From positions 239,988 through 303,987 of the forward strand of contig DATMEN010000004.1 of assembly GCA_035556975.1 (NCBI GenBank): a stretch of 64,000 bases of DNA, written 5' to 3'. Positions 1,632-17,276 of this stretch are shown piece after piece. The notes under the pieces were generated by a model, which made no database searches, had not been told where the DNA came from, and saw only the letters and a program-made list of their open reading frames with translations. The position numbers and the translations under genes are program-made. Position 1 is the stretch's first letter, and the number at the start of each line of letters is the position of its first letter. Source of the DNA: Chthoniobacterales bacterium (lineage in GTDB: Bacteria; Verrucomicrobiota; Verrucomicrobiia; Chthoniobacterales; UBA10450).

Positions 1632-1641
1632 GGGCGAGGGG

Positions 1642-2484
1642 CTACGCACCGCCACGAGTGCGCCTGTCGGCAATCCAGTCTCGATACGTCGTCGGGGTTC
1701 GATTTTCGACCAGCCTGTCGGTCAGCCGCAAAACTTGCCGCCAGATCTCGGGATGATCCCGATCCGATGGGTGAATGCTCACCCGAGCGAGGGGCGCGCC
1801 GGCGAGCTGGCGGGCCAGCACGCTGTTCCAGGCCAGGCTCGCCACGCGGCGCCAGCCGCTCCGGACACTATAGACGAGCGTTCGCGCGGGAAAATTATTC
1901 CCGGACCGCAGGTCGCGCACTCCCGTCAACCGCGTCGTGTATTCCATTTCCGCTTCGGCGGCCGCTCGCTCCGCGGCGGAGCCAAGCAGCCAGGCCGGGG
2001 CGATGAAACCGCGCGGCGTTAGTCCCGCTCCGACAAACTCGTCCCGCGCCTTCGTGATTCGACGAAAAGCTTCGTCGTAGTCCAGGTCGTAAAATTCCCC
2101 CTCGTGTCTGGTATACAGTTGGGTCAGAAATTTCCCGGTTAGGTTTTCACCATTCCGGCGCGGTCTCTCGTGAAAATAGCCGTGGATCACGATTTCGTGT
2201 CCCTGTGCTTCGAGGTCCTGGAGCCAGCGCACGAAACCGCGATCTTCCGCGAACGAGCCGCCATGGTGATAGTTTGGGACCACCAGCAGGGAACAAATCG
2301 GAACGCGGTGACGGGACAACTCCGCCATAATTTCCGCCGCGGCGGTTCGAGTGGCAGGCGCGACGTCATGCACGGAAACGATCAAAGCTTCCCGCTCCGC
2401 TTCCGCCGAAAGGGCAAAGAGGGAAGGCAACGATGTCGCACTGGCGCCGGTCACGCCGGATTTTCGATGCCAGCAGCGAAGCAA
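1642..2484 (-). CDS. DUF2334-type polysaccharide-deacetylase-like protein
   Basis: 280-aa ORF with VHDVAP, VVPNYHHG, IHGYFHE and FIAPAW segments typical of DUF2334. It ends 10 nt upstream of the PHP-GT gene on the same strand. Confidence 0.6.
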   Translation of the reverse strand: MLRCWHRKSGVTGASATSLPSLFALSAEAEREALIVSVHDVAPATRTAAAEIMAELSRHRVPICSLLVVPNYHHGGSFAEDRGFVRWLQDLEAQGHEIVIHGYFHERPRRNGENLTGKFLTQLYTRHEGEFYDLDYDEAFRRITKARDEFVGAGLTPRGFIAPAWLLGSAAERAAAEAEMEYTTRLTGVRDLRSGNNFPARTLVYSVRSGWRRVASLAWNSVLARQLAGAPLARVSIHPSDRDHPEIWRQVLRLTDRLVENRTPTTYRDWIADRRTRGGA

Positions 2485-2501
2485 ACAAGCCTAATCGCTT
2501 T

Positions 2502-2526
2502 GGAGGGACGGGCGCTGTCCCGTCCC
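2502..2526. repeat. REP-B single hairpin (GGAGGGACGGGCGCTGTCCCGTCCC)
   Basis: 8-bp perfect stem GGGACGGG/CCCGTCCC. It is 25/25 identical to the copy at 40084-40108. Confidence 0.85.
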
Positions 2527-2561
2527 AAGATTCCAGGACGCCACGGAAGACGTCCCTGCAC

Positions 2562-2969
2562 TCAGCGCGCCATGCGAAGGATCTCCTGAAATTCCGCGCT
2601 CGAAAGCGGCTGAACCGACAACCGCGAGAGACGCAGAAGCGCGATGTCTTTGAGCTTCGGGTTGCCCTTGATTTCATCGAGCGTCACCGGGCGGGGCAAC
2701 GCTTTCTCCGGAGCAAGATCGACCGCGCTCCAATCGCCTTCGGTCGCGGTGGAATCCGGGTAGGCCTCCCGGCTCACTTTCGCAATCCCAACCACGGCCT
2801 TTTCGCTCACGCTGTGGTAGAACAGGACCGAATCGCCCTTGCGCATCGCGCGCAGGTTATTTCTCGCGGTGTAATTGCGGACGCCGGTCCAGCTCGTCTT
2901 GCCGTCTGCGACAAAATCCGCCCACGAATACGCGGACGGTTCCTGTTTCACGAGCCAGAATTTTTTCAT
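2562..2969 (-). CDS. EVE (PUA-like) domain protein
   Basis: MKKFWLVKQEPSAYSWADF...WTGVRNYTARNNLRAMRKGDSVLFYHS is the characteristic EVE-domain N-terminus. Confidence 0.8.
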   Translation of the reverse strand: MKKFWLVKQEPSAYSWADFVADGKTSWTGVRNYTARNNLRAMRKGDSVLFYHSVSEKAVVGIAKVSREAYPDSTATEGDWSAVDLAPEKALPRPVTLDEIKGNPKLKDIALLRLSRLSVQPLSSAEFQEILRMAR

Positions 2970-3025
2970 CTTAGAATCTCTTAGATCAGCGCGAGCGATT
3001 CGACAAGCGCGCTGGTCTGCGACCT

Positions 3026-3089
3026 CAAGGAGCGGCGGCCTCCAGACCGCCGTGGGAAGGCGGGCGGTTTGGAAAGCGCCCCTCCTTGG
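3026..3089. repeat. REP-A palindromic doublet (degenerate second arm)
   Basis: CAAGGAGCGGCGGCCTCCAGACCGCCG ... GCGGGCGGTTTGGAAAGCGCCCCTCCTTGG. Confidence 0.8.
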
Positions 3090-3166
3090 GGCTCCCCTTG
3101 GCGCGTAGGTTTGTAGTTACGCACGCGGATTCGACAACTGTGCTCCTTTGTTTCACACTCGCTCAG

Positions 3167-3850
3167 ATGTCGCGCGGCGCGTTTATCACATTCGAGGGAT
3201 CGGAGGGTTGCGGCAAATCAACGCAGGCGAAGCGGCTGGCGGCGCGGCTGGAGGAGATCGGTGTGCCCGTTCTCATCACCCGGGAACCCGGCGGCACCGC
3301 GATAGGCGAAAAAATTCGCGACCTGCTTCAGTTCGCTCCGGAAAGCCTGGCGATGGCCCCGGAGACGGAGCTGTTGCTCTTCGAGGCCAGCCGGAGCCAG
3401 CTCGTGCGCGAAATTATCCGACCGGCCCTCGAGCAGGGAACTGTGGTGATTTCCGATCGGTTCTTCGATTCGACGACGGTTTACCAGGGCGTTGCGCGCA
3501 AGCTCGATCCTGAAATTGTCGAGAAGCTTAATGATTTTGCCGTGGGCGCCGATAAGCCTGACCTCACTTTCGTGCTCGAAGTCGATATCACGACGGCCCG
3601 CGAGCGCCTGTTGCGGCGCGTGCGCCCGGTCCAGGCTGTCGATCGCATGGAACAGGAGCCGCTCGAATTCTACGAGCGAGTTTGTGAAGGGTATCGCGAG
3701 CTGGCGCGGCGCGATCCGGCGCGGATGCGTCTGCTCGATGGCTCGCAGTCGCCCGATGAAATCGAAAATGAAATCTGGCGGGAAGTGTCGGAGCGTTTTC
3801 CCGCCATGAGGGCGCGCCGGAAAAACGAGGACGAGGGGCGCGCTTCGTAA
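3167..3850 (+). CDS. tmk: Thymidylate kinase
   Basis: ORF 3086..3850 trimmed to ATG 3167: MSRGAFITFEGSEGCGKSTQ (P-loop), ITREPGGT, DRFFDSTTVYQG. Confidence 0.9.
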   Translation: MSRGAFITFEGSEGCGKSTQAKRLAARLEEIGVPVLITREPGGTAIGEKIRDLLQFAPESLAMAPETELLLFEASRSQLVREIIRPALEQGTVVISDRFFDSTTVYQGVARKLDPEIVEKLNDFAVGADKPDLTFVLEVDITTARERLLRRVRPVQAVDRMEQEPLEFYERVCEGYRELARRDPARMRLLDGSQSPDEIENEIWREVSERFPAMRARRKNEDEGRAS

Positions 3851-3857
3851 AAACAAA

Positions 3858-4832
3858 ATGGCTTTTACCCGCGCCGGCGCCTTCGAATACCTGAGCCGCG
3901 CCCATGAAAATGGCCGCCTCGCTCATGCTTACCTGATCTCTGGACCGCCCGGCAGCGGCAAGCGCGGACTCGCCACCGACCTTTCCAATCTCGTCACGAC
4001 GGGAAAGGCGCCTGATGTCTTTGCTTCCCAGCCGCCCGGGGTTTACCTGGCCGAACCGGAATCGAAATCGCGCCGCATCGTGATCGATCAAGTGCGCGGG
4101 CTCGAGCATGCCCTCCAGATGCGGGCCGCGGGCGGACGGCGGAAAGTGGCGATTGTGGCCGAGGCGGACCGGCTCCAACCCCAGGCGGCCAACGCTTTTC
4201 TCAAGACCCTGGAAGAGCCGCCTAACGACTCGCTCCTGCTCCTCTTGAGTTCGATGCCGGAGGTTCTGCCGGACACGATTCTCTCCCGTTGCATCGCTAT
4301 TCCCCTGGTGGCGGAAGAGAAGGCGGCGCCTTCGCGGGAAGAAGAAGAATTGGTTGAGCTGCTCGGCACCGTCGCGGCTCCCGAAGCGCAGGGCGTTCAA
4401 CACGCCTACCGGCTCGCGCGCGGCTTTCATCGCCTGCTGGCCCAAATACGGGAAACGATCCAGCTCGAGAACGCGGCCGCTTTGAAGCGCGACGAGGCGC
4501 GCTACAAGAACACCACGGATGGAGCCTGGCTCGACGAACGCGAGGACTATTTCAAGGCCCTGACGGAAAGCCAGTACGTGCGCCAGCGCTCCCGGCTTCT
4601 CGAAGTGCTCTTTCTCTGGTGGTCAGACGTCCTTCGCGCCAGCACGAATGTGGCGCGGCGTGAACTGCCTTCCGCGAGCGATCGGACGCGCCTCCTCGCG
4701 CAGAAACTGTCGACCGCGGAAATTCTACGGCGAATCCGGCGCCTCGAGGAATTGCGGGATCATCTCGGGCGAAACATCCAGGAAGCTCTTGCGATCGAAG
4801 TGGCCTTCCTGAGCGTGTTTACATTTCAATAG
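3858..4832 (+). CDS. holB: DNA polymerase III delta-prime subunit
   Basis: GRLAHAYLISGPPGSGKRGLA, AANAFLKTLEEPP, ILSRC. It starts 8 nt after tmk, which is the classic tmk-holB pairing. Confidence 0.85.
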   Translation: MAFTRAGAFEYLSRAHENGRLAHAYLISGPPGSGKRGLATDLSNLVTTGKAPDVFASQPPGVYLAEPESKSRRIVIDQVRGLEHALQMRAAGGRRKVAIVAEADRLQPQAANAFLKTLEEPPNDSLLLLLSSMPEVLPDTILSRCIAIPLVAEEKAAPSREEEELVELLGTVAAPEAQGVQHAYRLARGFHRLLAQIRETIQLENAAALKRDEARYKNTTDGAWLDEREDYFKALTESQYVRQRSRLLEVLFLWWSDVLRASTNVARRELPSASDRTRLLAQKLSTAEILRRIRRLEELRDHLGRNIQEALAIEVAFLSVFTFQ

Positions 4833-4919
4833 AGCGCACACACCGCGGCGCTCAACCATGCTCGACCTGTGAAGGATTTAGGGCGCCTGCGCATCCAGGC
4901 GATTAGCGCCCGCTCTCGG

Positions 4920-5195
4920 TCATTGCGTAACCCAATCCGCGCACAGCACCTCGGCTTGGGCGAGAACGGTCTTGGTAGCCCCTTCCTTGAGGTCCGGGGG
5001 ATAGCCGTGTTTACGGAGGATGCGTGTCACTCGATGGCCGCGCGCAATCGCGCGGAAAGAATTACGCCGCCAAAAGATGCGCGTTCGGCCGCGCCCCCCG
5101 TCCGGCGGCAGTTTCAGCGCCTGTTCGACGGTGTATCCGAGCTCTCTGAACCACGTCAGCGCAGCTTCTTCGACGACAGATTCGGTGAAACTCAT
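4920..5195 (-). pseudogene. hsdR: Type I restriction subunit R relic (N-terminal ~57 codons joined to C-terminal ~30 codons)
   Basis: [23 protein letters not shown] is an HsdR N-terminus. Removing one G from the homopolymer at 5094-5099 gives [25 protein letters not shown], the next HsdR segment. The tail [28 protein letters not shown] is the HsdR C-terminal (DUF3387-like) motif. The nuclease/helicase core of roughly 900 aa is missing. Confidence 0.75.
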
Positions 5196-5208
5196 TACGT
5201 CTCGCGTC

Positions 5209-7044
5209 TTATTTCGTCATCGACATCGAAAGTCCGAGCTTCCATCGAGTATTCGCGACTTCGGATACGACCGTGTAGTAGGTCGAATCACTCGAGAGAA
5301 CAAGAACGTCATCGTCTTGCTGAACCGGCACAACGCTCTTTGTAATATGCCGCACCAGTTGATCCCGACGGCTCAAGCCAAGCAGTTTCTGATACGGATA
5401 ACCTGCGTTGCATTCGGGTGGCTCATGGCTGTCCCCGTCCCACGCTACTGACGAAACCCCAAATTCGCCGAATGCAGGCAGAAGACATACACCATTGCTG
5501 TCTGTTAAGATGAACCCGCGTTTGCTTTGCCATGCTGCTTCTGCCAACTCGATCGGGACTCGCCACTGGCCTATTTGAGCCGCCGCAAACATTAAGCCCG
5601 CGAATGTTCCGTTCGGATTTAGGAGTGGCTGGCAGAGAAAGAATGTGCCGTGTTTGTTGTAAAGCGACGCTACTTGGTCAGAGACAAATGCCTTCCTAAA
5701 TGAGTTGGCTATTTGAAAGTATGGGCGCTCGGAAACTCCACGGCTTGTGATATCCGCCTTCCGAGCAACTGATAGTCCTTTTGGCAATGAGCACGCGAGG
5801 ATTTGCCCGGCTTCGTTTGCGACATATAGGCCTTGGGCAGCCAGAGGACCGAGGCTCGTTTGAAGGCGATCGAGCCAGTCCGCGGGTCCGCTTTCGTGGA
5901 TGAGCTTGAGAGCATTCCCATTCTCTCGCGCGAGGGCGTCGAGTCCCTCGTTCAAAGGGTCTTCAATCTGTGAAATGACCGACGAGAGATCCACATCGAG
6001 CCTTGCTTCAGTATCGGTGTGAAGAGCTAACGTTTTTGAAAGGATCAGGTCTGAGAGAGCCGCCGCCAACGCATGTGAACGGATTGTGGCTGGATCGGCC
6101 GGCAACACGGACGGAGGTGTCAAAGCAACAATTCCGCGTGCGGCAAAGATTTCTGGGGTATGCGAGCGCATATCAAACTGCAGGCTGTAGAATTGAGGCC
6201 ACTCCGTTGTTCGATGATGCGGATTGTTTTCGAACTGGTGAATGGCATCATCCACCAGGCGCGACACTTCTGGATCGCGGTGGCTGAATCCGACAAACAA
6301 CGTGTGCCTCTTCCGCAATAGTTCGATCAACAGGTTGAAGAATTCCGCATTAGCGCGGTAGTGGTGGCGATAATCCCGTCTGGTCAGGATGAGATGTTCG
6401 TCGAGACGCGAAACACAGCCATGGATCTTGAATAGGACCGAGCCCGGCCGGCGCCCCCCAATGATCTCGCGAGCAGTGGGTAGATGCGTATCATTCGTTG
6501 CGATAAATAACTCAGAACGCCCTAGCGACGACCACGCTTTTTCGAAAAGCGCGTCATAGTTAGTAGTGACGTAGATTTTGCAACCCAGTTCCGCCAATAG
6601 TCTGTGACTAGTCGTAGGCAGTTTGTCGCCCCCGAAGACGTCTCTCAACCTCTGTTGCAGAGTTTCATTTCCGAGAACCTGGGCTGCGAGCTCGGCCAGA
6701 GTAAGCGGATCGTTCTTTAGGTCCTCATCGTCCACAAGGTTCCTGTCCAACTGGAAGTAGTCGACGAGAAGGCTCTGCCATGACGGAAAGCCTGCCGGAA
6801 GCGAAACTCCCGCCCCGAAAAAAGCCGTCGCATTGTTCGTGCTGAAGCCTTGGACGCAGCGAGGCGGCCAGAACGTGGAAATATCTCGCCAACTGACTTC
6901 GTCTTTTCGGAATCGTTTGAGAGACTCGTCAATCCACGAAGCCGATTCCTTCGCTACAAGAGGGTCGGAGAATCGGTCGCTTCTTTCCTTTAGGTTTTTG
7001 GCCAGCAGGACGGCAGGGGCGGCTTGAGCCGGAGTCGTCTTCAT
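5209..7044 (-). CDS. SIR2-like (SIR2_2 type) NADase domain fused to a C-terminal Cache/PDC-like sensor domain
   Basis: 611 aa. The N-terminal part has [47 protein letters not shown] and [11 protein letters not shown]. The C-terminal ~210 aa has [64 protein letters not shown] and [18 protein letters not shown]. There is no TM segment or signal peptide. Confidence 0.7.
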
Positions 7045-7148
7045 ATGTGGGGGCCAATTGTTGAAGGGCAGCGAAGTTCGCCGCTCAGTAGCTTTGGCAG
7101 CAGCGTGTCGCGCAGCGTAGCGAGGGTGCGGGATTCGGTGGCACTCAT
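7041..7148 (-). pseudogene. hsdS: Type I specificity subunit C-terminal relic (35 codons)
   Basis: Own translation (below the ORF-track cutoff): [35 protein letters not shown]. RDxLLPKLLSGEL is the conserved HsdS C-terminal helix. Its TGA overlaps the SIR2 gene ATG (ATGA), and its ATG shares one nt with the stop of the upstream gene. Confidence 0.7.
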
Positions 7149-7996
7149 CATGAGATTGGCGCGACCATACTGCGCTTTGCTTTTAGGCCGACAAGAGCCG
7201 CCCTCAAAACTTGTAGGCAAATTTGTGCCGTATGCTCGTCCGGTTGGAAACCTGATGCCATCTGTTCATACGGGTGGATGTAGTTCCTGAAGTCCCGGAC
7301 AGCGTGCCCGAACTTTTTCACATCAAGACGCAGCACTCCGACTTCGTGGGCAACATCAATAAGGTTCGCGAGGGTCCATTCATGAAATGCACGGACCTTC
7401 CCTGTTTCCTTTTCTTTTGGGCTTGCCGCAGCCCGATTGAACTCAGCGGGATTCTTCAAAGCTACGGCCAAAAGGATTCCTTCAAGAATGCTCCCGCACA
7501 TGAAGACTGTTGAAAGCGGAGCACCACCGCCAACGCACTCCACCGCTTCTTTCACCCTTGCCGTTAGTATGCGTTCAATGCTGTGGTCCAAATCCAACCC
7601 TTCAACGGAGATCGCGCCGAAATCTCGCTTGAGGAAATCGGACTCTGTTTCCTGCTTTAGCTCCCTCCCCAGAAGGCGCGCCGCCGTTCGACTACACTCT
7701 TCATATTGCCGGTCAGCACGCTCGTTCTTGCCAGGGTCATTGAGGTATCGCCATACCTCCAGAAGTTGTTCCAAAGCCCTCCCGACATTTGCAGGCGTTT
7801 CGATTTCCCAGAACGCTCGAAGTCGCTTTGCCTTCGATGTGCCGTTGAAAGCGTAGCGCGGATCATAAATGTTTGTTCCTACCTCTTGTCGGAAGAACTC
7901 GGCGAACGTCCTATCAGAAAAGTTTAGGACATATCCACTGGTCATGCCGAATAGGTCTTCGAATCTTTGCTTCTCGATCGTTGAAAGAGCACTCAT
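7148..7996 (-). CDS. Hypothetical protein with a HEPN-like C-terminal four-helix region (283 aa)
   Basis: ORF 7148..8242 trimmed to ATG 7994-7996: [35 protein letters not shown].... The C-terminus reads [16 protein letters not shown]...[14 protein letters not shown]...[16 protein letters not shown] (an R-x6-H / RNxxH motif). The upstream 82 codons of the long ORF are an alternate frame over the hsdS relic. Confidence 0.6.
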
Positions 7997-8334
7997 GCAG
8001 AGATCTCTTTTCCTACTCCGATTACCCAAAAGTCTTTGTCGCACAATTCGATGCCCCGCGGTCCTTGTCCTTTTCTTCCGAGGATTAGACCAGGCGCTTC
8101 GGCTAGCGGTGCGTCGTGCCAGCCACATTGCCCGTTGGTGCCGAACACGGGCACCTTTCCCAGACTTCGCGTGTCGGCTTTCAACGCGCGTCCGTAGTTC
8201 AACGAGACAAGCTTCCGAGCCGGGACTAGAGGCCATCGCCATTCAGTGTCTCTTGCGAGACCGCCAGGGTAGGTGGTTCCGGGCTGCGACGAATCTTCAA
8301 TCGTCGATGGGCTGATTTTAGGAGAAGATCGCAT
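7993..8334 (-). pseudogene. hsdS: Type I specificity subunit 5' relic (first target-recognition domain only)
   Basis: MRSSPK...[21 protein letters not shown]...[47 protein letters not shown] is the HsdS TRD pattern. It breaks off after FWVI, where the embedded gene starts. Confidence 0.7.
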
Positions 8335-8559
8335 CGTCAACGTCTGCCGTTGTAACGGGTCTGCCTCGTTCAACTGCCAAGAGCAAGAGCAAGAGTCTTC
8401 AAACGTGTCCGAGATGTACTTGAGGAAGATCAGGCCGAGGACGACGTGCTTGTACTCCCCCGCGTCCATGTTGCTACGGAGCCTGTCCGCGGCGAGCCAC
8501 AGCTTGGCTTCGAAGCCGAGATCAGCGGAGGAGTTCTTGGAGGAGCGAGCGCGAGCCAT
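8335..8559 (-). pseudogene. hsdM: Type I methyltransferase subunit relic (N-terminal 54 codons plus short tail)
   Basis: [54 protein letters not shown] is the HsdM N-terminal domain. It is followed by (CTCTTG)3 and about 20 more codons. The methyltransferase core is absent. Confidence 0.75.
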
Positions 8560-8640
8560 GGAGGTAGATGTTTCTACCGCAATGCCTGCCGAAATCGAGG
8601 CGAATTCCTCAACGCCCGTTAGCCCGAGGTCGCCGCAAAC

Positions 8641-8704
8641 CAAGGAGCGGCGGTTTGGAACCGCCGACCTAACAAAACGGCGGTTTCAAACCGCCGCTCC
8701 TTGG
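8641..8704. repeat. REP-A palindromic doublet
   Basis: CAAGGAGCGGCGGTTTGGAACCGCCG acctaacaaaa CGGCGGTTTCAAACCGCCGCTCCTTGG. Confidence 0.9.
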
Positions 8705-8745
8705 CATTGTTCTCCGCGCGCCCACGGCATATCATCCCGAACTCT

Positions 8746-9489
8746 ATGAGATTCGAAAATCAGGTTGCGGTGGTCACGGGGGCGGGGCGGGGAATCGGGC
8801 ACGCCATTGCCGTGCGCCTCGCGAGCGAGGGCGCGCGTGTCGCCTCGGTGAGCCGAACCGAAGCAAACGCCAATAAAACCGCGGCGGAGATCAACGGCGC
8901 CTGCGCGGATGCGTCGAAGGCTTATGCCGTCGATGTGGCAGACCATGCCGCCGTCCAAAAAATTGGGGCCCAGATCCTGGAAGACTTCGGTCGCGTCGAC
9001 ATTCTGGTGAATAATGCCGGCGTCACCCGCGATGGCCTCAGTATGCGGATGTCGGTCGAAGATTGGGACACCGTCCTGAACACGAACTTGAAAGGCGCCT
9101 TCAGTTTTACGCAGGCCTTGATGCGGCCGATGATCAAGCAGCGGAGCGGCCGGATCATCAACATCAGCTCGATCAGCGGATTGATCGGCAACGCGGGCCA
9201 GGCGAATTACGCTGCGAGCAAGGCGGGGCTGATTGGGCTTACGAAAACCCTGGCCCGAGAGCTGGCGAGCCGTGGGATCACGGTGAACGCCGTCGCTCCC
9301 GGGTTGATCGAGACGGACATGACCACCGTGCTTTCCGACGAAATTCGTCAATCCATTTTGCAGAAGGTCCCGCTCGGCAAATTGGGGCAACCGGACGATA
9401 TCGCCGGCGCTGTCGCCTATCTCGCTTCCGCGGAGGCGGCCTATATCACCGGCCAAGTGCTGGCCGTCGACGGCGGCATGGTGATGTAA
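8746..9489 (+). CDS. fabG: 3-oxoacyl-ACP reductase
   Basis: Trimmed to MRFENQVAVVTGAGRGIGHAIA. Also NNAG, YAASKAG (YxxxK) and GITVNAVAPG. Confidence 0.85.
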   Translation: MRFENQVAVVTGAGRGIGHAIAVRLASEGARVASVSRTEANANKTAAEINGACADASKAYAVDVADHAAVQKIGAQILEDFGRVDILVNNAGVTRDGLSMRMSVEDWDTVLNTNLKGAFSFTQALMRPMIKQRSGRIINISSISGLIGNAGQANYAASKAGLIGLTKTLARELASRGITVNAVAPGLIETDMTTVLSDEIRQSILQKVPLGKLGQPDDIAGAVAYLASAEAAYITGQVLAVDGGMVM

Positions 9490-9497
9490 TTCTTTCC

Positions 9498-9563
9498 CAA
9501 GGAGCGGCGGTCTCCAGACCGCCGACCTAAAAACAACGGCGGTTTGTAAACCGCCGCTCCTTG
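9498..9563. repeat. REP-A palindromic doublet
   Basis: CAAGGAGCGGCGGTCTCCAGACCGCCG ... CGGCGGTTTGTAAACCGCCGCTCCTTG. Confidence 0.9.
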
Positions 9564-9650
9564 AGGCTGAATGCCCTCGGCAGCGCCCACGCAGCCGAAC
9601 GAGCACCAAAATTGCTGTTTTGAGTCCCAGCCTAGCCAGGCAGTCCGCGA

Positions 9651-10283
9651 ATGAAAACTCTCTCAGCACTGTTCGCGATTGGGCTCGCAATTCTTGGCTA
9701 CACCTATCTTCAGCGCCCGATCAGTTATCCGGCCGGCGTTCTCGTCGAGTCGGAGCCAGCCCAGATCGCGATAGCCGAAGGCCACGCGCCGATCGAGCAT
9801 GGCGAGTATCGCCTGAAACCGCTCGCCCGCTTTTCGCTCGATGGGCGCATCTTGCACCGGAAGGTTTATCGCTACGATCGGGAAGCGAAGCTCGTCCCCA
9901 TCGATCTTGCGGTTGGCTGGGGGCCGATGTCCGATCAGGCAGTGCTCGATCAAATCAAGATCACTCAGAGCATGCGCTTCTACTGGTACGAATACCGGTT
10001 GCCACCGCCGATTCCCCAGGACCGAATCATTTCGCACAGCACCAATCTGCATGTCATTCCGGCGACATCCGTGGTTCTGTCCTTCTGCAAATCGTTGCGC
10101 CAGGGTGAGCTGGTTCATCTTGAGGGCGAACTGGTCGAGGCGACCGGTCCGGAGATCGGCGCCTGGCGCAGTTCACTCAGCCGGACGGACACCGGAAAGG
10201 GCGCGTGTGAATTGATGCTGGTGCAAGATTGTTCGAAGATCAGTCGCACGGAAGCCAAGTCCGCCCGACTCGTCACGCGCTGA
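9651..10283 (+). CDS. Hypothetical exported/membrane-anchored protein
   Basis: 210-aa ORF with an N-terminal hydrophobic segment [20 protein letters not shown]. No family recognised. Confidence 0.5.
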
Positions 10284-10287
10284 TCCT

Positions 10288-10382
10288 GGTGGACCGGGCG
10301 CTCCGCGCGCGATGCTTTGGAGTTGGCCCGAGAGCTTTCGGGGCCATTATTGTCATCGCGCGACGGAGCGCGCGATCCACCT
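10288..10382. repeat. PAL-G long palindrome (~95 bp)
   Basis: GGTGGACCGGGCGCTCCGCGCGCGATG ... CCCGAGAGCTTTCGGGG ... CATCGCGCGACGGAGCGCGCGATCCACC. It is a homologue of the element at 39363-39461 and starts 5 nt after a stop codon. Confidence 0.8.
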
Positions 10383-10419
10383 ATTTGCACCGCCGCTCTT
10401 CCCGTTTCATGGTGAAACC

Positions 10420-10896
10420 ATGGCGACAGAAAAAGCGACATTTGGGGCCGGTTGTTTCTGGGGCGTCGAAGCGACCTTCCGGGCCACGCCCGGTGTGACC
10501 AATGCAACCGTCGGATACGCCGGCGGCACGACGGAGAACCCGACTTATGAGGCTGTGTGCAGCCACGACACCGGACATGCCGAAGTGGTGCAGGTGGAGT
10601 TCGATCCGGCCATCGTCAGTTACAATCAGCTCCTCGATGTTTTCTGGGCCAATCACAATCCGACCACGCTGAATCGTCAGGGGCCGGACATTGGGGACCA
10701 ATATCGTTCAGTGATTTTTTATCATTCGCCGGAACAGCGCGTCGCGGCGGAAGAGTCGAAATCCAGCCTGGACCAGAGTGGGCATTTCAAGCGGCCCATC
10801 GTGACTCAGATCGAACCGGCGCCGACATTTTACCCCGCGGAGGATTACCACCAGCGCTACCTGGAGAAGCGCGGCTTGTCGCATTGCGCGGTTTGA
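10420..10896 (+). CDS. msrA: Peptide methionine (S)-S-oxide reductase
   Basis: Trimmed to [20 protein letters not shown] (GCFWG active site), followed by [12 protein letters not shown]. Confidence 0.9.
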
Positions 10897-10914
10897 TGCG
10901 CCGCCGTCGCCCCG

Positions 10915-11610
10915 ATGAAGCGCGAAGTCATTCGCTCCAGCAACTTCGTGGCGGACGCGGCCGAGTTCATCCTCCAGCACGCGCGCACGGCGCTGGCGGA
11001 ACGCGACCAATTTCGAATCGCGCTCTCGGGTGGAAACACTCCGCGCCCGGTCTACACCGAGCTGGCCAGGATTGGGCGGGACCTTCCGTGGGACCGGATC
11101 TATTTTACCTTCGGCGACGAGCGGTGTGTGCCGCCGGAGGATGAGCAAAGCAATTACCGCATGGCCCGCGAAACACTTTTCGCTCCCGCGGCCGTGCCAG
11201 AGAAATCGATCGCGCGGATCCGGGGCGAGAGCGAGCCGCAGATCGCGGCCCAGGAATACCAGGACGGGCTGGACCTTCTCGCTGCTCAAGGCGGCGAAAT
11301 GATCTACCGGCACGACCTGATCCTCCTGGGGATGGGAGACGACGGGCACACGGCTTCTTTGTTTCCGGGAACGGCGGCGTTGGAGGAAAAAACACGCAAG
11401 GTGGCGGCCAACTTCGTTCCAAAATTCGACGCCTGGCGGATCACTTTCACCTTCCCGCTCATCAGCCAGGCGCGTCACATTTGTTTCCTGGCGAACGCGA
11501 ACAAAAACAGGGCGCTGCTCGAGAAGGTGCTGCAAGGCGACCGCCAGTATCCCGCGGCCCAGGTCGAACCCTCGAACGGCGGCCTGACCTGGATTCTCGG
11601 TGAGTCATAG
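10915..11610 (+). CDS. pgl: 6-phosphogluconolactonase
   Basis: [12 protein letters not shown] and [15 protein letters not shown]. Confidence 0.85.
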
Positions 11611-11642
11611 AACCCGGCACGACTCCAGCTTCGAGCTTTCCC

Positions 11643-12707
11643 ATGCGTAAGATTATCGTGACCGGTTCCGCGGGCCTGATCGGCTCCGAGACGGTCAAGC
11701 ATTTCGCGGGCGAAGGATATCGCGTGGTCGGAATCGATAACGATATGCGAAGCCGTTTCTTCGGAGCGGAGGCCTCGACCCAGAAGACGCGCGAGCAGCT
11801 CGTCCAGACAGTCCCGGAGTATGAACACCGCGACCTCGATATCCGGGATGCGAGTGGGGTGCTGGAATTATTCAAAGCGCATCGCTCCGATATCGCAGCC
11901 GTGGTTCATACCGCGGCGCAGCCTTCCCACGATTGGGCCGCGCGCGATCCGCAGACCGATTTTACCGTCAACGCGAACGGCACCCTGAACCTCCTCGAAG
12001 CCGCCCGCGAGGTCTGCCCGGAAGCGCCGTTCGTCTTCACGTCGACCAACAAAGTTTATGGCGACACGCCAAATCGGCTGCCGTTATCGGAGCTGCCTTT
12101 GCGTTGGGAAATTGCCGAGGGCCACGAATACGAACCGGGCATTTCCGAGACGATGAGCATCGATTACACAAAGCATTCGCTCTTCGGCGCGTCGAAGGCG
12201 GCCGCGGATATCCTGGTGCAGGAGTACGGGCGTTACTTCGGAATGCCGACCGCCTGTTTTCGCGGCGGCTGCCTGACCGGACCGGCCCATGCCGGCACCG
12301 AGCTGCACGGTTTTCTTTCCTATTTGATGATCTGCACCGTGACCGGACGGCCTTACCGCGTCTTTGGCTACGGCGGAAAACAGGTGCGCGATAATATTCA
12401 CAGCGCCGATCTCGTGGATGCCTTCGCCGCCTTCCTTCGCGCGCCGCGCGCGGGGGAAGTTTATAACATCGGCGGCAGCCGCCACTGCAACTGCTCCATG
12501 CTCGAAGCGATCGACCTCTGCGAGGAAATCAGTGGCCGGAAGCTAACCTGGAAATACGAGGAAGATAACCGTATCGGCGACCACATTTGGTGGATCAGCG
12601 ATGTCCGAAAATTCCAGGAGCACTATCCCGAATGGAAGTTTCGTTACGGCCTGCGGGAAATTCTCGAAGAGATCTACGGAGCGGTGATGGCGGGCCAAAA
12701 CAGGTAG
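11643..12707 (+). CDS. NAD-dependent epimerase/dehydratase family protein
   Basis: [13 protein letters not shown] (GxxGxxG) and FGASKAAAD (YxxxK region), 354 aa. Confidence 0.75.
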
Positions 12708-12716
12708 GGGCGTCGA

Positions 12717-12797
12717 CTTGCACCTGCACTTTAACTTTCACCTGCACACCTTTGTCGCAACGAAGCGTGCAAGTTAAAGTGAAAGTGTAAGTGCAGG
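12717..12797. repeat. HEX-F hexamer-periodic hairpin (probable bidirectional terminator)
   Basis: Left arm CTTGCAC CTGCAC TTTAAC TTTCAC CTGCAC and right arm GTGCAA GTTAAA GTGAAA GTGTAA GTGCAG. About 17/19 bases pair in the best register. It lies between convergent genes. Confidence 0.7.
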
Positions 12798-12825
12798 ACA
12801 GCGCGCTGTCCCTGCCAGGCAAGCC

Positions 12826-13233
12826 TCAATACTCTTCGCCTTCGTCCTTCACGGTCGGCGCGACTTTGTCTTCCACTCCGTAGACGTGGAACATGACGCC
12901 AAACCAATAGATCGGGATCAAGGCGAGCCCGAATCCGGCGGTGGCCGTCGCCGCCAGCGCGCCGGCCAGAATCGCGCCAAACGCGCCGGTCACGAAAAGG
13001 AGGCCGAGCAGCTTGTATCCTTTGTAAACATGGCCGAGCCCGGGGACCACGCTCAGCATGACCGCAACTAAATCGCTCGCCTGGCCTTCCGCGGTGTCTG
13101 TGTCGGGCGTGCGCACCCAATCACAACGATCGCAGTTTGCCGCATCTTTGGGCAGCACCTGTCCGCAGAGCGGGCAGTTGATGATGTCGGCCGATATGGT
13201 GGGTTCTGAAGTTGGCGCGTCAGTGTATTCCAA
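12826..13233 (-). CDS. Zinc-ribbon membrane protein
   Basis: CPLCGQ...CDRCDW zinc ribbon followed by two hydrophobic helices. Confidence 0.55.
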   Translation of the reverse strand: MEYTDAPTSEPTISADIINCPLCGQVLPKDAANCDRCDWVRTPDTDTAEGQASDLVAVMLSVVPGLGHVYKGYKLLGLLFVTGAFGAILAGALAATATAGFGLALIPIYWFGVMFHVYGVEDKVAPTVKDEGEEY

Positions 13234-14330: not shown

Positions 14331-17276
14331 ATGAATGCGGATTCATTCGCCTGTCTCGGCCTCGTCATCCTGTTGGTGCCGATCCTTTTGATCGTGGTCG
14401 GCGTGGTGGAGATCCACAAACTGAAGAAAACCGTGCGCGAGCTCGCCAGTCGCATCGGGGCGCTGGAATCGCGTGATCGCGGGTTCGCCGCGCCAGCGGT
14501 CTCGGTTCAGCCACCGGCGAGTGCACCCGCGCCCGAGGCTGTTTCGCCGCCGGGCCCGACCATCCCGCGCGCAGTTCCGCCGCAGGGTTCAACGCCTGCG
14601 GTCGTTCCGGAACCGGCGCGGCCAAAGGCAGGTCCCAGCGTGCCACCGCCGTTGCCCCCGCCAATGCCCGCTGGCCCGCCACCGCCTCCTCCATTTCTGC
14701 CGCGTCCCGCCCGCGCGGCGATCGACTGGGAAGCATTCCTGGGGGTCAAACTCTTCGCCTGGATCGGAGGCTTCGTTCTTTTCCTCGGGATCGTTTTCCT
14801 GGTAAAATACTCCTTCGAGAACAACCTCATCACTCCCGCAATGCGGGTGGTGATCGGCACAGCCATCGGGCTCGCGCTTATCGTGACCGGCTGGTTGACG
14901 GCGACCCGGCGCTACCGCGTCTCCGGCCAGAGCCTCTGCGCGACCGGAGTGTTGGTTCTCTACGGAAATATTTTTGCGGCCCACGTTTTCTATCATTTGA
15001 TCGCGCTCGTTCCCGCGTTCGCTTCCATGGCGATCGTCACGGCCGCGGCGTTTTTCCTGGCCGTCCGCATGAACGCCCAGGTCATCGTCGTCCTGGGCTT
15101 ATTGGGCGGTTTTCTCACGCCGGGACTTCTTTCCACCGGAGTCGACAATCCGATCGCGCTCTTCGGCTACATCGCGGTCCTCAACGTCGGCATCGCCGCC
15201 GTCGCCCTGCGCAAGCGCTGGGATTATCTCATCCTGCTCGCGGCGGCCGGCACGGCGCTGACGGAGTTCGCCTGGGGCTGGAAGTTCTTCGAACATTGGA
15301 AGGCAAACATCGCGTTCGTCGTTTTTCTCGGCTTCGAAGCGCAGTTCCTCGCGATTTTCGCGGCGCAACGCCGAACCAATCCGAAGGCGGACTGGGCGGC
15401 GGGTGGGGTTGTCTTGCTTGGTTTCACGGCCCTGGCCGCGGCCTTCTCGTTCCTCGGCTATTCCGAGCTCGGTCGCCGGCCCGGCTTCATTTTCACGTTC
15501 GCCTTTCTCGCCGAGGCGGGCCTCCTCGCCCTGGTTATCCTTCGATCGAGATCTACGGCCCTGCTCGCACCCGCCGGCGGCCTGGCCGTCTTTGCCTTCC
15601 TGGTCATGTGGACGGGAATTTACCTGAACGACGCGTTGCTGTGGTGGGGGCTGGGCGGGTATATCGCGTTCGCTCTCTTCCACGCGGGTTTCGCATTCTG
15701 GCCAAAAGAGGACGCGACCGCTTCCACAGAAGGCGCATGGCACAGTTACGTGCCGTTGCTGCCGCTCGTGCTCATTTGCGTTTGCGTCGGGAAAAGCGAA
15801 ACATCGGCGGCCGTCTGGCTTTGCGTTCTCCTTCTCAATGTCATCGCGGTCGGCGTGGCCTTTGCGCGGCGTTCTCTTCCAGCAGTTGCCATCGCACTGG
15901 TCGTAACCATCTTCGCCGCCGCATTGTGGATTTTGACGGCGCCGCCCGAAATCGATCTCCGCTGCTTCTTGATCGTAGCGGCCGGAGCCGGGGCCTTCTT
16001 TTTCTCCGCCGCCCTCTTCGCGGCCCGAAGGTTTTTCCCCGATTCGGAAAATGTGCGGCGCAACCTCCCCGCGCTCGCGGCTTCGATGCCATTCCTGCTC
16101 CTGCTCATGGCGATCGCCAAGCTGCCGATCGTGAATCCGACGCCCTTTTTCATTACGGCGTTTTTCCTCGCGGTCCTGCTGCTCGGCCTTGGCGTTGTTA
16201 CGCGGACGAGCTGGATCGCCCTGATCGCGCTCACTTTCACCTGGGCCGTCGAACGCGAATGGCAGGCGCTCCATTTCACGGAGAGTTACGGCGCGCTTGC
16301 GATTGGGTGGCAGGTCGCGTTTTTCCTGCTTTTTCTGGGCTATCCGTTTTTCACGGCGGAAGAACGCAAGCCCTTGCCATGGGCCATCGGCGCACTGTCC
16401 GGCCCTCTGCATTTTTGGCTGATCTACGAAATCATTCGGATGACATTTCCGGACCTGGACAACGGATTGGTCCCGGCCGCCTTCATTCTCCCGTACGCGA
16501 TCGGCGCACTCTTTCTGGTGAAGAAAAAGCAAGTGATCCCCGCCTCGGGGGATGCGCGCCTCGCCTGGCAAGCGGGAGCCGCGTTGTTTTTCGTCAGCCT
16601 CATCTTCCCGATCCAATTCGAGCGCGAATGGATCACCATAGGCTGGGCCCTCGAGGGCTTCGCTTTGCTTTGGTTGTTCCGCGTCGTGCCGCACCGGGGT
16701 CTGCGTTACGTCGGCGTGGGACTGCTCTGTGTGGCCTTCGTCCGTCTCGCTTTGAACCCCGCGGTGCTCGAATATCATCCCCGAAGCGCGACTCCGATCT
16801 GGAACTGGTATCTCTACGGCTACGGCCTTCCGATCTTGTGTCTGTTCGGCGGCGCCTGGCTCTGCCGCCCCACGCCGCAATCCGCTTTCGAACGAACGGC
16901 GCCCACCCTCCTGAACTCGTTAGGCGCGATCCTCACCTTCCTGCTCCTGAACATCGAGATCGCGGATTATTTTTCGATTGGACCCACGCTCACCTTCTCG
17001 TTCTCGGGCAACTTCGCCCGCGACATGACGTATTCCATTGCCTGGGCCCTCTTCGCCTTCGTGCTCCTTCTCGTCGGCATGAAACAAAAGACAGGCTGGG
17101 TGCGTTACGCGGGCGTCGTTCTCCTGCTGGTTACGCTCCTCAAACTCTTCCTGCACGACCTGGGGAATCTCAGTCAGCTTTATCGCATCGGCGCGTTCAT
17201 CGGTGTCGCCGTCATTCTCATCGTCGCCTCGTTCGTTTATCAGCGCTTTCTGGTCCCGAAGAGCAAGGATTCATAA
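14331..17276 (+). CDS. DUF2339-like large polytopic membrane protein
   Basis: 981 aa. It has an N-terminal TM, a short coiled segment, a proline-rich linker and then more than 20 hydrophobic helices. The long ORFs in other frames here are GC-driven artefacts. Confidence 0.7.
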   Translation: MNADSFACLGLVILLVPILLIVVGVVEIHKLKKTVRELASRIGALESRDRGFAAPAVSVQPPASAPAPEAVSPPGPTIPRAVPPQGSTPAVVPEPARPKAGPSVPPPLPPPMPAGPPPPPPFLPRPARAAIDWEAFLGVKLFAWIGGFVLFLGIVFLVKYSFENNLITPAMRVVIGTAIGLALIVTGWLTATRRYRVSGQSLCATGVLVLYGNIFAAHVFYHLIALVPAFASMAIVTAAAFFLAVRMNAQVIVVLGLLGGFLTPGLLSTGVDNPIALFGYIAVLNVGIAAVALRKRWDYLILLAAAGTALTEFAWGWKFFEHWKANIAFVVFLGFEAQFLAIFAAQRRTNPKADWAAGGVVLLGFTALAAAFSFLGYSELGRRPGFIFTFAFLAEAGLLALVILRSRSTALLAPAGGLAVFAFLVMWTGIYLNDALLWWGLGGYIAFALFHAGFAFWPKEDATASTEGAWHSYVPLLPLVLICVCVGKSETSAAVWLCVLLLNVIAVGVAFARRSLPAVAIALVVTIFAAALWILTAPPEIDLRCFLIVAAGAGAFFFSAALFAARRFFPDSENVRRNLPALAASMPFLLLLMAIAKLPIVNPTPFFITAFFLAVLLLGLGVVTRTSWIALIALTFTWAVEREWQALHFTESYGALAIGWQVAFFLLFLGYPFFTAEERKPLPWAIGALSGPLHFWLIYEIIRMTFPDLDNGLVPAAFILPYAIGALFLVKKKQVIPASGDARLAWQAGAALFFVSLIFPIQFEREWITIGWALEGFALLWLFRVVPHRGLRYVGVGLLCVAFVRLALNPAVLEYHPRSATPIWNWYLYGYGLPILCLFGGAWLCRPTPQSAFERTAPTLLNSLGAILTFLLLNIEIADYFSIGPTLTFSFSGNFARDMTYSIAWALFAFVLLLVGMKQKTGWVRYAGVVLLLVTLLKLFLHDLGNLSQLYRIGAFIGVAVILIVASFVYQRFLVPKSKDS

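Follow-up and report, generated by a model that had tools for sequence, protein, structure and literature searches.

An intact SIR2-double Cache gene in the cargo slot of a decayed type I restriction-modification operon: a candidate single-protein anti-phage NADase

The stretch of DNA analysed here (the window; 64,000 nt of contig DATMEN010000004.1, assembly GCA_035556975.1, from a Chthoniobacterales bacterium) contains, among the remains of a type I restriction-modification (R-M) operon, an intact gene for a protein in which a predicted SIR2 domain is followed by a predicted double Cache (dCache) domain, and the sequence and a structural model make this protein a credible single-protein anti-phage candidate. 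The gene, SIR2-dCache (5209..7044; like every other feature of this locus described below, on the minus strand), is an uninterrupted, ATG-started open reading frame (ORF) of 611 codons plus a stop in both the ORF list and the translation, and its product is an exact match to P0001, a 'SIR2 family protein' of a Chthoniobacterales metagenome-assembled genome (MAG). Metagenomes contain full-length homologues in more than 190 clusters, with lengths of about 600 aa and identities of 40-69%, and an alignment of 41 homologues (A1) reveals conservation from end to end; given this number of full-length homologues and conservation over the entire length, the ORF is a real gene. The full-length AlphaFold 2 (AF2) model has a predicted local distance difference test (pLDDT) score of 90.2 and a predicted template modelling score (pTM) of 0.87. 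The 611-aa protein contains only seven scattered Cys residues and no CxxC pair, and therefore lacks the Cys4 zinc ribbon of sirtuins; it has no transmembrane (TM) helix or signal peptide, the maximum Kyte-Doolittle hydropathy over 19 residues being 1.19, and is therefore soluble. An earlier note on this DNA, made from its letters alone, had described the uninterrupted ORF, a series of protein motifs and the lack of a zinc ribbon, TM segment and signal peptide; all of these hold, each quoted motif being present in the translation, and the observation as a whole is confirmed and its interpretation supported.

Read along the minus strand, the island consists of an hsdM/hsdS fusion relic, a gene for a 282-aa protein, a mini-ORF, SIR2-dCache and an hsdR remnant. 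Its history became legible by comparison with L029, a locus with an intact operon of the order hsdM, hsdS, 282-aa gene, mini-ORF, PhoD-like gene and hsdR. The relic ORF (7993..8643) joins a 5' fragment of hsdM to an N-terminal fragment of hsdS: it retains HsdM_N at residues 39-85 (Pfam E=8e-12) and an hsdS part at residues ~135-208, it is matched by the PADLOC models MTase_I and Specificity_I, and the beginning of the L029 hsdM matches nt 8396-8560 at 83% identity (blastn). The mini-ORF (7041..7220; 59 codons, carrying LATLRDTLLPKLLSGEL) is derived from hsdS, of which it represents the 3' end, and its stop codon, TGA, runs into the ATG of SIR2-dCache; this is the ATGA overlap with an hsdS relic that had been noticed earlier. 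L029 has a mini-ORF of the identical type after its 282-aa gene, a copy of the 3' end of its own hsdS (blastn 53 bp, 87%). The hsdS 3' end (encoding ATLRDTLLPKLL; 7912-7964 and 8846-9001 in L029) is thus directly duplicated, with one copy on each side of the 282-aa gene, and the stop of the downstream copy overlaps the ATG of the next cargo gene, SIR2-dCache in the window and the PhoD-like gene in L029; RhuM fills the corresponding slot in two further loci, L030 and L031. On the other side, the internally deleted hsdR remnant (4920..5195, a 91-codon ORF) starts 14 bp after the stop of SIR2-dCache and keeps the first ~25 and the last 33 codons of HsdR. In BLASTP against the 1047-aa HsdR of L029, residues 56-88 of the remnant correspond to 1013-1045 at 85% identity and residues 1-25 to the N-terminus, and blastn aligns 94 bp at 79% identity. 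SIR2-dCache therefore lies between an hsdS 3' relic and an hsdR remnant and fills the position between hsdS and hsdR in a type I R-M operon. At the nucleotide level, the window and L029 cease to be homologous inside the mini-ORF, ~35 bp before the SIR2-dCache ATG, and become so again in the 3' end of hsdR; from this break and return it follows that SIR2-dCache sits in an exchangeable cargo slot framed by conserved sequences, those of the hsdS 3' end and the hsdR 5' end. These arrangements suggest that recombination at the conserved hsdS 3' end is a route of cargo exchange.

The host operon has not survived. All three of its genes, hsdM, hsdS and hsdR, are reduced by internal deletions that leave in-frame mini-ORFs; since both cargo ORFs, the 282-aa gene and SIR2-dCache, are intact while the R-M genes are deleted, the cargo outlived its host, and we conclude that the R-M genes were deleted later. 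The locus thus illustrates that embedded cargo genes can survive the loss of their host R-M operon, and the decayed type I R-M setting that had been proposed can now be specified as relics of hsdM, hsdS and hsdR together. The low GC content that had been reported for the gene is real, but the contrast was exaggerated by the few lines then counted (45-50% against 73%): the SIR2-dCache gene has 53.6% GC (57.7% at third codon positions, GC3) and the island (4900-8660) 54.9%, against 60.5% in both flanks, and the GC3 of the island genes is 54-58%, against 68-77% for the flanking core genes (tmk and holB on one side; a short-chain dehydrogenase/reductase (SDR) gene, msrA, pgl and an epimerase gene on the other). 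A scan of 4700-8900 for promoters and terminators gave nothing above shuffled expectation.

The N-terminal half of SIR2-dCache is a predicted ThsA-type SIR2 domain. The SIR2_2 (ThsA-like) NADase domain (residues ~66-320; 6085..6849) was delimited by Pfam, PADLOC, Foldseek and alignment. Pfam PF13289 (SIR2_2), the family expected at the N-terminus by the earlier note, matches residues 157-306 with 86.5 bits against a cutoff of 24.5 (E=2e-24). The best PADLOC model is ThsA1 (E=2e-33), which covers the SIR2 part only (profile positions 14-216 of 478), as do the weaker matches to Dsr2, Dsr1, LmuA and PDC-S25/S65; a PDB sequence search returned ThsA first (7uxt, 8wc0, 6lhx and 8bto), followed by DSR2 and KomC, and a Foldseek search with the full-length model found the SIR2 domains of ThsA and DSR2 at E values of ~1e-13 to 1e-11. 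Canonical deacetylase models, by comparison, reached E=0.11 only. The GAGxS NAD loop (G77, G79 and S81; nt 6802-6816) and the residues at the catalytic positions, N162 (nt 6559-6561) and H208 (nt 6421-6423), were all located by their codons and are invariant in the 41 sequences of A1. A residue-level alignment to Bacillus cereus ThsA (6lhx) places N162 on N112 and H208 on H152, and N112A and H152A are the ThsA mutants studied in PMC7272460; in PDB entry 8bto the ThsA position matching N162 is occupied by Ala. The residues of an NADase are thus in place, and SIR2-dCache is predicted to be an NAD+ hydrolase.

Two further elements of the N-terminal half are particular to the SIR2-dCache family. 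The first is an N-terminal two-helix extension (residues 1-65, 6850..7044; helices 5-20 and 28-47 by DSSP), which is closed by a near-invariant W59-P60-P61-R62 in A1 and is specific to the SIR2-dCache family, ThsA alignments beginning only at about residue 66-69. The second is a loop at residues 287-300 (6145-6186; its first part, residues ~287-296, lies at 6157..6186), S287 L288 Q289 F290. M292.. H295. P297 E298, identified from A1 and the AF2 model, whose columns are invariant or nearly so in A1 and again specific to the family. It is the sole low-confidence segment of the AF2 model (pLDDT ~43, and below 50 for residues 291-299) and may be a mobile active-site lid.

The C-terminal ~270 aa are modelled as a complete double Cache fold. 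The dCache_1-like domain (residues 340-611, 5212..6027) was recognized from the AF2 model, Foldseek and a family profile; its pLDDT is 92.7, and the model resolves it into N-terminal helices (residues 349-402), a distal PAS-like module (residues ~405-530, nt 5455-5832) and a proximal module (residues ~531-611, nt 5212-5454). In a Foldseek search of residues 340-611 against the PDB, the top 49 matches were all dCache ligand-binding domains (LBDs), with ~270-290 aligned columns, template modelling scores on the target (TMt) of 0.6-0.7 (up to 0.70) and E values down to 3.9e-10. The best was Mlp24 (6ioq; E=3.9e-10, 274 columns, TMt 0.68), and the others included Mlp37, rpHK1S-Z16, DctB, KinD, Tlp3, PctA, McpH and PctD. 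A family profile of the C-terminal region alone matched the KinD sensor (4jgo) at E=2.2e-9. Because the top 49 Foldseek matches were all dCache folds and the profile found KinD, this region is a complete dCache of ~270 aa and not a SLOG domain, and identity with the C-terminal part of ThsA is thereby ruled out. The earlier note had named a Cache module of ~210 aa and had left the choice between Cache and SLOG to a structural comparison: the assignment to Cache and the intracellular location, in the absence of any TM segment, were borne out, but the domain is longer and double. Such a location is unusual. Among Cache domains 78% are confidently extracellular, a mainly intracellular location being limited to YkuI_C and Diacid_rec (PMC4822843); here the dCache_1-like domain is soluble and ends at the extreme C-terminus of the protein, with the SIR2 output domain N-terminal of it.

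Conservation within this domain peaks in the signature of the distal pocket (R-P-Y-F, FVSD and DSNG). The motif R440-P-Y442-F443 (5716..5727), the equivalent of the dCache 'RxWY' as judged from A1, a further alignment (A3) and the profile alignment, is invariant in both A1 and A3. R440 aligns with R131 of KinD, a pyruvate-site residue that is mutated to Ala in 4jgq and 4jgr (R131A), as well as with the Arg of 'RPWY' in Mlp24. A conserved pocket of Arg and aromatic residues suggests, at the level of sequence, that the ligand is a small anionic molecule. In the proximal module, the triplet D577-D578-D579 (5308..5316; codons checked) is invariant in 41/41 sequences; within 'VPxxQDDDVL' it starts a strand, and it could be a metal site, a site for a basic ligand or a domain interface.

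The same domain could be read differently, as one that recognizes a phage protein or peptide, in the way that the DSR2 C-terminal domain recognizes the tail tube, or that serves as an oligomerization scaffold. Phage proteins act as the trigger of DSR2 and Avs5, which are other stand-alone SIR2 defence proteins (PMC10981675, PMC11897194), and the invariant proximal DDD triplet together with an LSRRD motif could form an interface. However, it is the distal pocket that is most conserved, including the Arg that contacts the ligand in KinD, and all structural neighbours of the domain are small-molecule receptors; we therefore hold protein sensing or scaffolding to be an unlikely role for it, and small-ligand binding remains the role that we prefer.

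The combination of the two domains appears to be exclusive. When residues 340-611 were searched exhaustively with phmmer against 1.84 billion representatives, 65 clusters were returned, all of ~600-aa proteins or fragments; SIR2_2 was present on 9/9 of the matches that were scanned with Pfam, and a word-indexed profile search with A3 gave three matches that added nothing. Over these 1.84e9 representatives, fusion to SIR2 is the only setting of this dCache subtype, and other effector domains on it, for which the same search was inspected, are ruled out, only SIR2 fusions or fragments having been returned. The fusion itself is rare. When one genome was taken for each species (~185,000 species genomes), a pattern scan found 18 loci, in Planctomycetota, Acidobacteriota, Actinomycetota, Chlorobiota, Bacteroidota and one Promethearchaeota MAG, and the homologue search added two lineages, Methylomonas and the Chthoniobacterales (Verrucomicrobiota), so that the spread is patchy and covers at least seven phyla. 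The Promethearchaeota (Asgard) case is a 42%-identical homologue on a 5.7-kb MAG contig (L012), which may reflect either inter-domain transfer or contamination during binning. The lower GC of the gene and its patchy spread point to probable horizontal transfer. Carriage by phages or plasmids was rejected: no full-length relative was found among the viruses of IMG/VR and the phages of INPHARED, and the plasmids of PLSDB gave SIR2-domain matches only. With respect to previous descriptions, no model of PADLOC 2.0 or NCBIfam covers the full-length architecture, and we found no paper that pairs SIR2, ThsA or an NADase with a Cache domain in the literature searched, which mostly excludes subscription journals; a search for cytoplasmic Cache domains, with most subscription journals likewise outside its reach, gave no relevant paper. 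To this extent the claim that the architecture is undescribed stands.

Neighbouring ORFs were clustered over 23 and then 67 loci, of which 56 were non-redundant and 33 had at least 3 kb of flank and were considered informative. Of the 56 non-redundant loci, at most 4 share any one neighbour family, and the shared families are response regulators and histidine kinases; such two-component regulators and SDRs, which recur in at most 5 loci and ~8 kb away, were rejected as partners and attributed to chance paralogues. SIR2-dCache is thus a stand-alone gene without a dedicated partner. In several lineages the gene does lie among defence genes. A Chlorobiaceae locus (L008) holds a complete type I R-M system of the order hsdR ... 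hsdM, PDC-S22 and hsdS, followed by SIR2-dCache; the gene between its hsdM and hsdS (7726-8577) is the PADLOC candidate PDC-S22 (E=6e-131), and with PDC-S22 and SIR2-dCache this R-M system therefore carries two cargo genes, like the window locus. In L023, the order is hsdM, hsdS, an OLD-like and a UvrD-like gene (Gabija-like), hsdR and then SIR2-dCache, and elsewhere the gene adjoins GmrSD (L024) or lies near an MzaA-like gene (L016). Embedding in type I R-M operons is a published predictor of defence function, 'guilt by embedding' (bioRxiv 10.1101/2024.01.29.577857; PMC11411939). Type I R-M adjacency at 3/33 informative loci looks more than random to us, as a matter of judgement and without a computed expectation. 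As to whether homologues cluster with defence genes, a test that the earlier note had proposed, the answer is thus mixed: type I R-M, GmrSD and TIR genes are neighbours in several lineages, but many homologues lie outside recognizable islands.

The R-M association bears on a further explanation, namely that SIR2-dCache is a guard of the PrrC kind, held inactive by the type I R-M complex and released when a phage anti-restriction factor attacks this complex. PrrC is almost exclusively embedded in type I R-M (bioRxiv 10.1101/2024.01.29.577857), SIR2-dCache lies where embedded genes of the PrrC type lie in their operons, with translational coupling to an ORF that derives from hsdS, and R-M adjacency is seen in three lineages. 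Yet the hsdM, hsdS and hsdR genes of the window are destroyed while the SIR2-dCache ORF is intact, at least 30 of the 33 informative loci lack type I R-M in the vicinity, and the protein has a sensor domain of its own, so that we regard such a guard function as very improbable.

TIR genes raise another alternative. At L001, a 1186-aa TIR_2-KAP NTPase gene (4215-7775) stands 226 bp upstream of SIR2-dCache on the same strand, in the company of an integrase and an Rtc/Hen1/Pnkp cassette, and at L025 the neighbours are a CAP12-PCTIR-type TIR gene (12102-13109) and Endonuclease_NS; at these two unrelated loci TIR genes directly flank SIR2-dCache, an arrangement that is not conserved elsewhere. The protein could accordingly be the effector half of a Thoeris-like system, in which a TIR or other enzyme, unlinked or variably placed, makes, upon infection, a second messenger derived from ADP-ribose (ADPR) and the dCache has replaced SLOG. 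The closeness of the SIR2 domain to that of ThsA and the identical order, with SIR2 N-terminal and the sensor C-terminal, agree with this, as do the TIR genes adjoining SIR2-dCache at L001 and L025. On the other hand, TIR neighbours occur in only 2/33 informative loci and no partner family is conserved, a scan of the genes flanking the island on both sides (window ~1640-12700) revealed no TIR, and the C-terminal domain is not SLOG. A Thoeris-like division of labour is, in our judgement, doubtful.

Many homologues keep ordinary company. When 100 neighbour ORFs were scanned as a pool with PADLOC and Pfam, most matches were to housekeeping families, with defence genes in the minority, and L003, L004, L026 and L028 have metabolic or nondescript neighbours only, L003 lying in a cluster like those for ribosomally synthesized and post-translationally modified peptides. 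Two 53%-identical homologues, P0015 (L026, 14162-21827) and P0031 (L028, 1-9121), both adjoin genes of urate and purine catabolism (xanthine dehydrogenase, allantoicase, 5-hydroxyisourate (HIU) hydrolase, 2-oxo-4-hydroxy-4-carboxy-5-ureidoimidazoline (OHCU) decarboxylase, DUF6986 and urate oxidase). Such company may reflect synteny common to related Acidobacteria, or it may point to the ligand. It also raises the prospect of a regulator outside immunity, gated by an endogenous metabolite such as an intermediate of purine catabolism and acting as an NAD-dependent deacylase, an ADP-ribosyltransferase or a controller of the NAD pool, for which the housekeeping-only neighbours at many loci and the presence of the uric-acid-binding dCache of McpH (8bmv) among the fold matches could also be cited. 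Such a role is improbable, however, for a SIR2 domain of the SIR2_2/ThsA type that canonical deacetylase models barely touch; the family is, moreover, rare and patchy (18 of ~185,000 species genomes in the pattern scan), the gene is compositionally foreign in the window, SIR2-dCache lies inside or abuts R-M operons in three lineages, and no metabolic neighbour is conserved.

Known SIR2 effectors are triggered by a second messenger, as in ThsA with its SLOG domain, or by binding of phage protein or nucleic acid, as in DSR2, Avs5, SPARSA and SIR2-HerA, and the extracellular small-molecule sensors found most often in bacteria are Cache domains. Our preferred reading, to which we assign a probability of about 0.5, is that SIR2-dCache is a single-protein abortive-infection NADase, in which a ThsA-type SIR2 domain would be gated by a ligand bound to a cytoplasmic dCache. 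In the uninfected cell, the SIR2 active site would be held inactive. A small, probably anionic molecule (a carboxylate or phosphate) that arises or accumulates on infection would bind the distal pocket at R440, Y442 and F443, and the signal would pass through the long N-terminal helices of the Cache domain and the linker helix at residues 321-338, probably with a change of oligomeric state, as in ThsA, as part of the transmission. The SIR2 domain would then hydrolyse NAD+, and the depletion would abort the infection. No dedicated partner gene would be needed for function, and the gene would move between genomes by horizontal transfer, as cargo of defence loci; in the window this cargo occupies the place between hsdS and hsdR of a type I R-M operon that has since decayed. 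The gating by a ligand, the nature of this ligand and the anti-phage role are all proposed from sequence and model.

Several observations weigh against this reading. No Pfam Cache model reached threshold on the window protein, and members of the family score 27-38 bits on PF02743, against a gathering score of 45, over profile positions 70-216; PF02743 nevertheless appears at E<=0.1, below threshold, in 13/15 members, and a precomputed PF02743 annotation exists on ~15 homologues, so that the Cache family that the earlier note expected from Pfam is seen through the family profile and sub-threshold in members, but not on the window protein itself. The positions that bind the amino group in the amino-acid-binding motif of dCache_1AA, which we take to be Y-R-W-Y-Y-D, do not appear to be conserved: in the alignment to Mlp24, which is weak (E=0.013), the Arg and one aromatic residue are kept, and the positions of the amino-group ligands are D456 and Ala/Ser. 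The Cache domain could instead act as a protein-binding or oligomerization module. Finally, about two thirds of the informative loci (L003, L004, L026 and L028 among them) have no recognizable defence neighbour, and type I R-M genes are present at only 3/33.

A bolder form of the proposal, which we put forward tentatively and rate below even odds, is that SIR2-dCache is the first Cache immune receptor: a cytosolic dCache that would read an infection-specific metabolite without a cognate synthase, fire SIR2 and spread as R-M cargo. The phage or the perturbed host would then be the source of the metabolite, and the protein would carry out a one-protein abortive infection by 'metabolite pattern-recognition'. 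If true, this would represent a new sensing logic in bacterial immunity, the direct readout of an infection-associated metabolite, and it would provide a rare Cache output that is soluble and easily assayed, NAD+ consumption, for ligand discovery.

The other embedded gene of the island (7148..7996, 282 aa; DUF4145/HEPN-like) was identified by homologue search and PF13643. It has more than 3500 homologues, including some of 85-93% identity on contigs unrelated to one another, among which is a Thiobacillus contig (P0178), and in 3/3 examined loci it stands between hsdS and hsdR (8001-8849 in L029, 8001-8846 in L030, and L031). PF13643 (DUF4145) weakly matches 15/20 members of the family and no curated Pfam model exceeds threshold; an R234..R237-N-Y-x-H241 motif, HEPN-like in look, is invariant, and no sequence relative was found in the PDB. 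As a partner of SIR2-dCache the 282-aa gene was rejected: it bears no likeness to the neighbours of SIR2-dCache homologues, the clustering of neighbour ORFs showed it to be absent at the other SIR2-dCache loci, and R-M operons that lack SIR2-dCache also carry it. The 282-aa gene is probably a defence or toxin gene in its own right, embedded in R-M operons. Two other genes of the window were noted in passing. An EVE-domain protein (PF01878, E=7e-45; 2562-2969, minus strand) lies 2 kb from the island, adjoining tmk and holB, and is probably unrelated, and a 981-aa ORF (14331-17276, plus strand) coincides with a region of strong negative AT skew (14.5-16 kb, down to -0.35); by eye its translation resembles a polytopic membrane protein whose N-terminal region is Pro-rich, and the ORF looks ordinary.

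Among known systems, the R-M-embedded genes (PrrC, TgvAB and the PDC/HEC candidates of PADLOC) share the hsdS-hsdR niche with SIR2-dCache (PMC11411939; bioRxiv 10.1101/2024.01.29.577857), but the proteins are unrelated and most SIR2-dCache homologues lie outside R-M operons. The dCache_1 LBDs of Mlp24, Mlp37, PctA, Tlp3, DctB and KinD share the fold over its full length, a long helix with two PAS-like modules, and their pocket Arg (R131 of KinD, the Arg of 'RPWY' in Mlp24) is kept as R440. In contrast to SIR2-dCache, they are extracytoplasmic, lie between two TM helices and signal through the second to a kinase or methyl-accepting chemotaxis protein (PMC4822843), whereas SIR2-dCache has no TM helix, carries the domain at its C-terminus and has the output N-terminal of the sensor; nor does the amino-acid-binding motif appear to be conserved in the weak Mlp24 alignment. 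SIR2-dCache thus has the dCache fold, yet it stays below the Pfam threshold and lacks the usual topology. YkuI_C and Diacid_rec offer a precedent for cytoplasmic domains of the Cache superfamily (PMC4822843), but they are small, distinct families on EAL or transcription-regulator outputs, and neither was matched by SIR2-dCache in Pfam scans.

The closest relative of the effector half is ThsA of Thoeris (6lhx, 7uxt and 8bto), which is its best match by sequence, profile and fold and shares with it the catalytic Asn and His, the GAGxS loop, the lack of a zinc ribbon, the order of SIR2 followed by sensor and a similar size class (476-497 aa, against 611 aa). The two differ in the sensor, which is a SLOG/STALD domain that binds glycocyclic ADP-ribose (gcADPR) in ThsA and a double Cache here, in the additional 65-residue N-terminal extension of SIR2-dCache and in the adjacent thsB (TIR) gene, which is absent beside SIR2-dCache over the region scanned; the identity of the SIR2 domains is only ~24% in the Foldseek alignment. 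DSR1, DSR2 and SIR2-STAND (Avs5) are likewise single proteins with a SIR2 NADase effector and a fused C-terminal sensor, and their SIR2 fold is matched at E ~1e-12, but they are proteins of 770-1270 aa with alpha-solenoid or STAND sensors for phage proteins instead of a 270-aa dCache, and the NCBIfam models for Dsr2 and Dsr1 give SIR2-dCache 42.8 and 21.6 bits against cutoffs of 1400. SIR2-dCache therefore has neither the SLOG domain nor the thsB neighbour that define ThsA, and falls outside the DSR families. Many SIR2-sensor fusions are already known. The sensor-effector plan of SIR2 is thus a familiar one, and the double Cache would appear to add to it a sensor class unreported so far in immunity.

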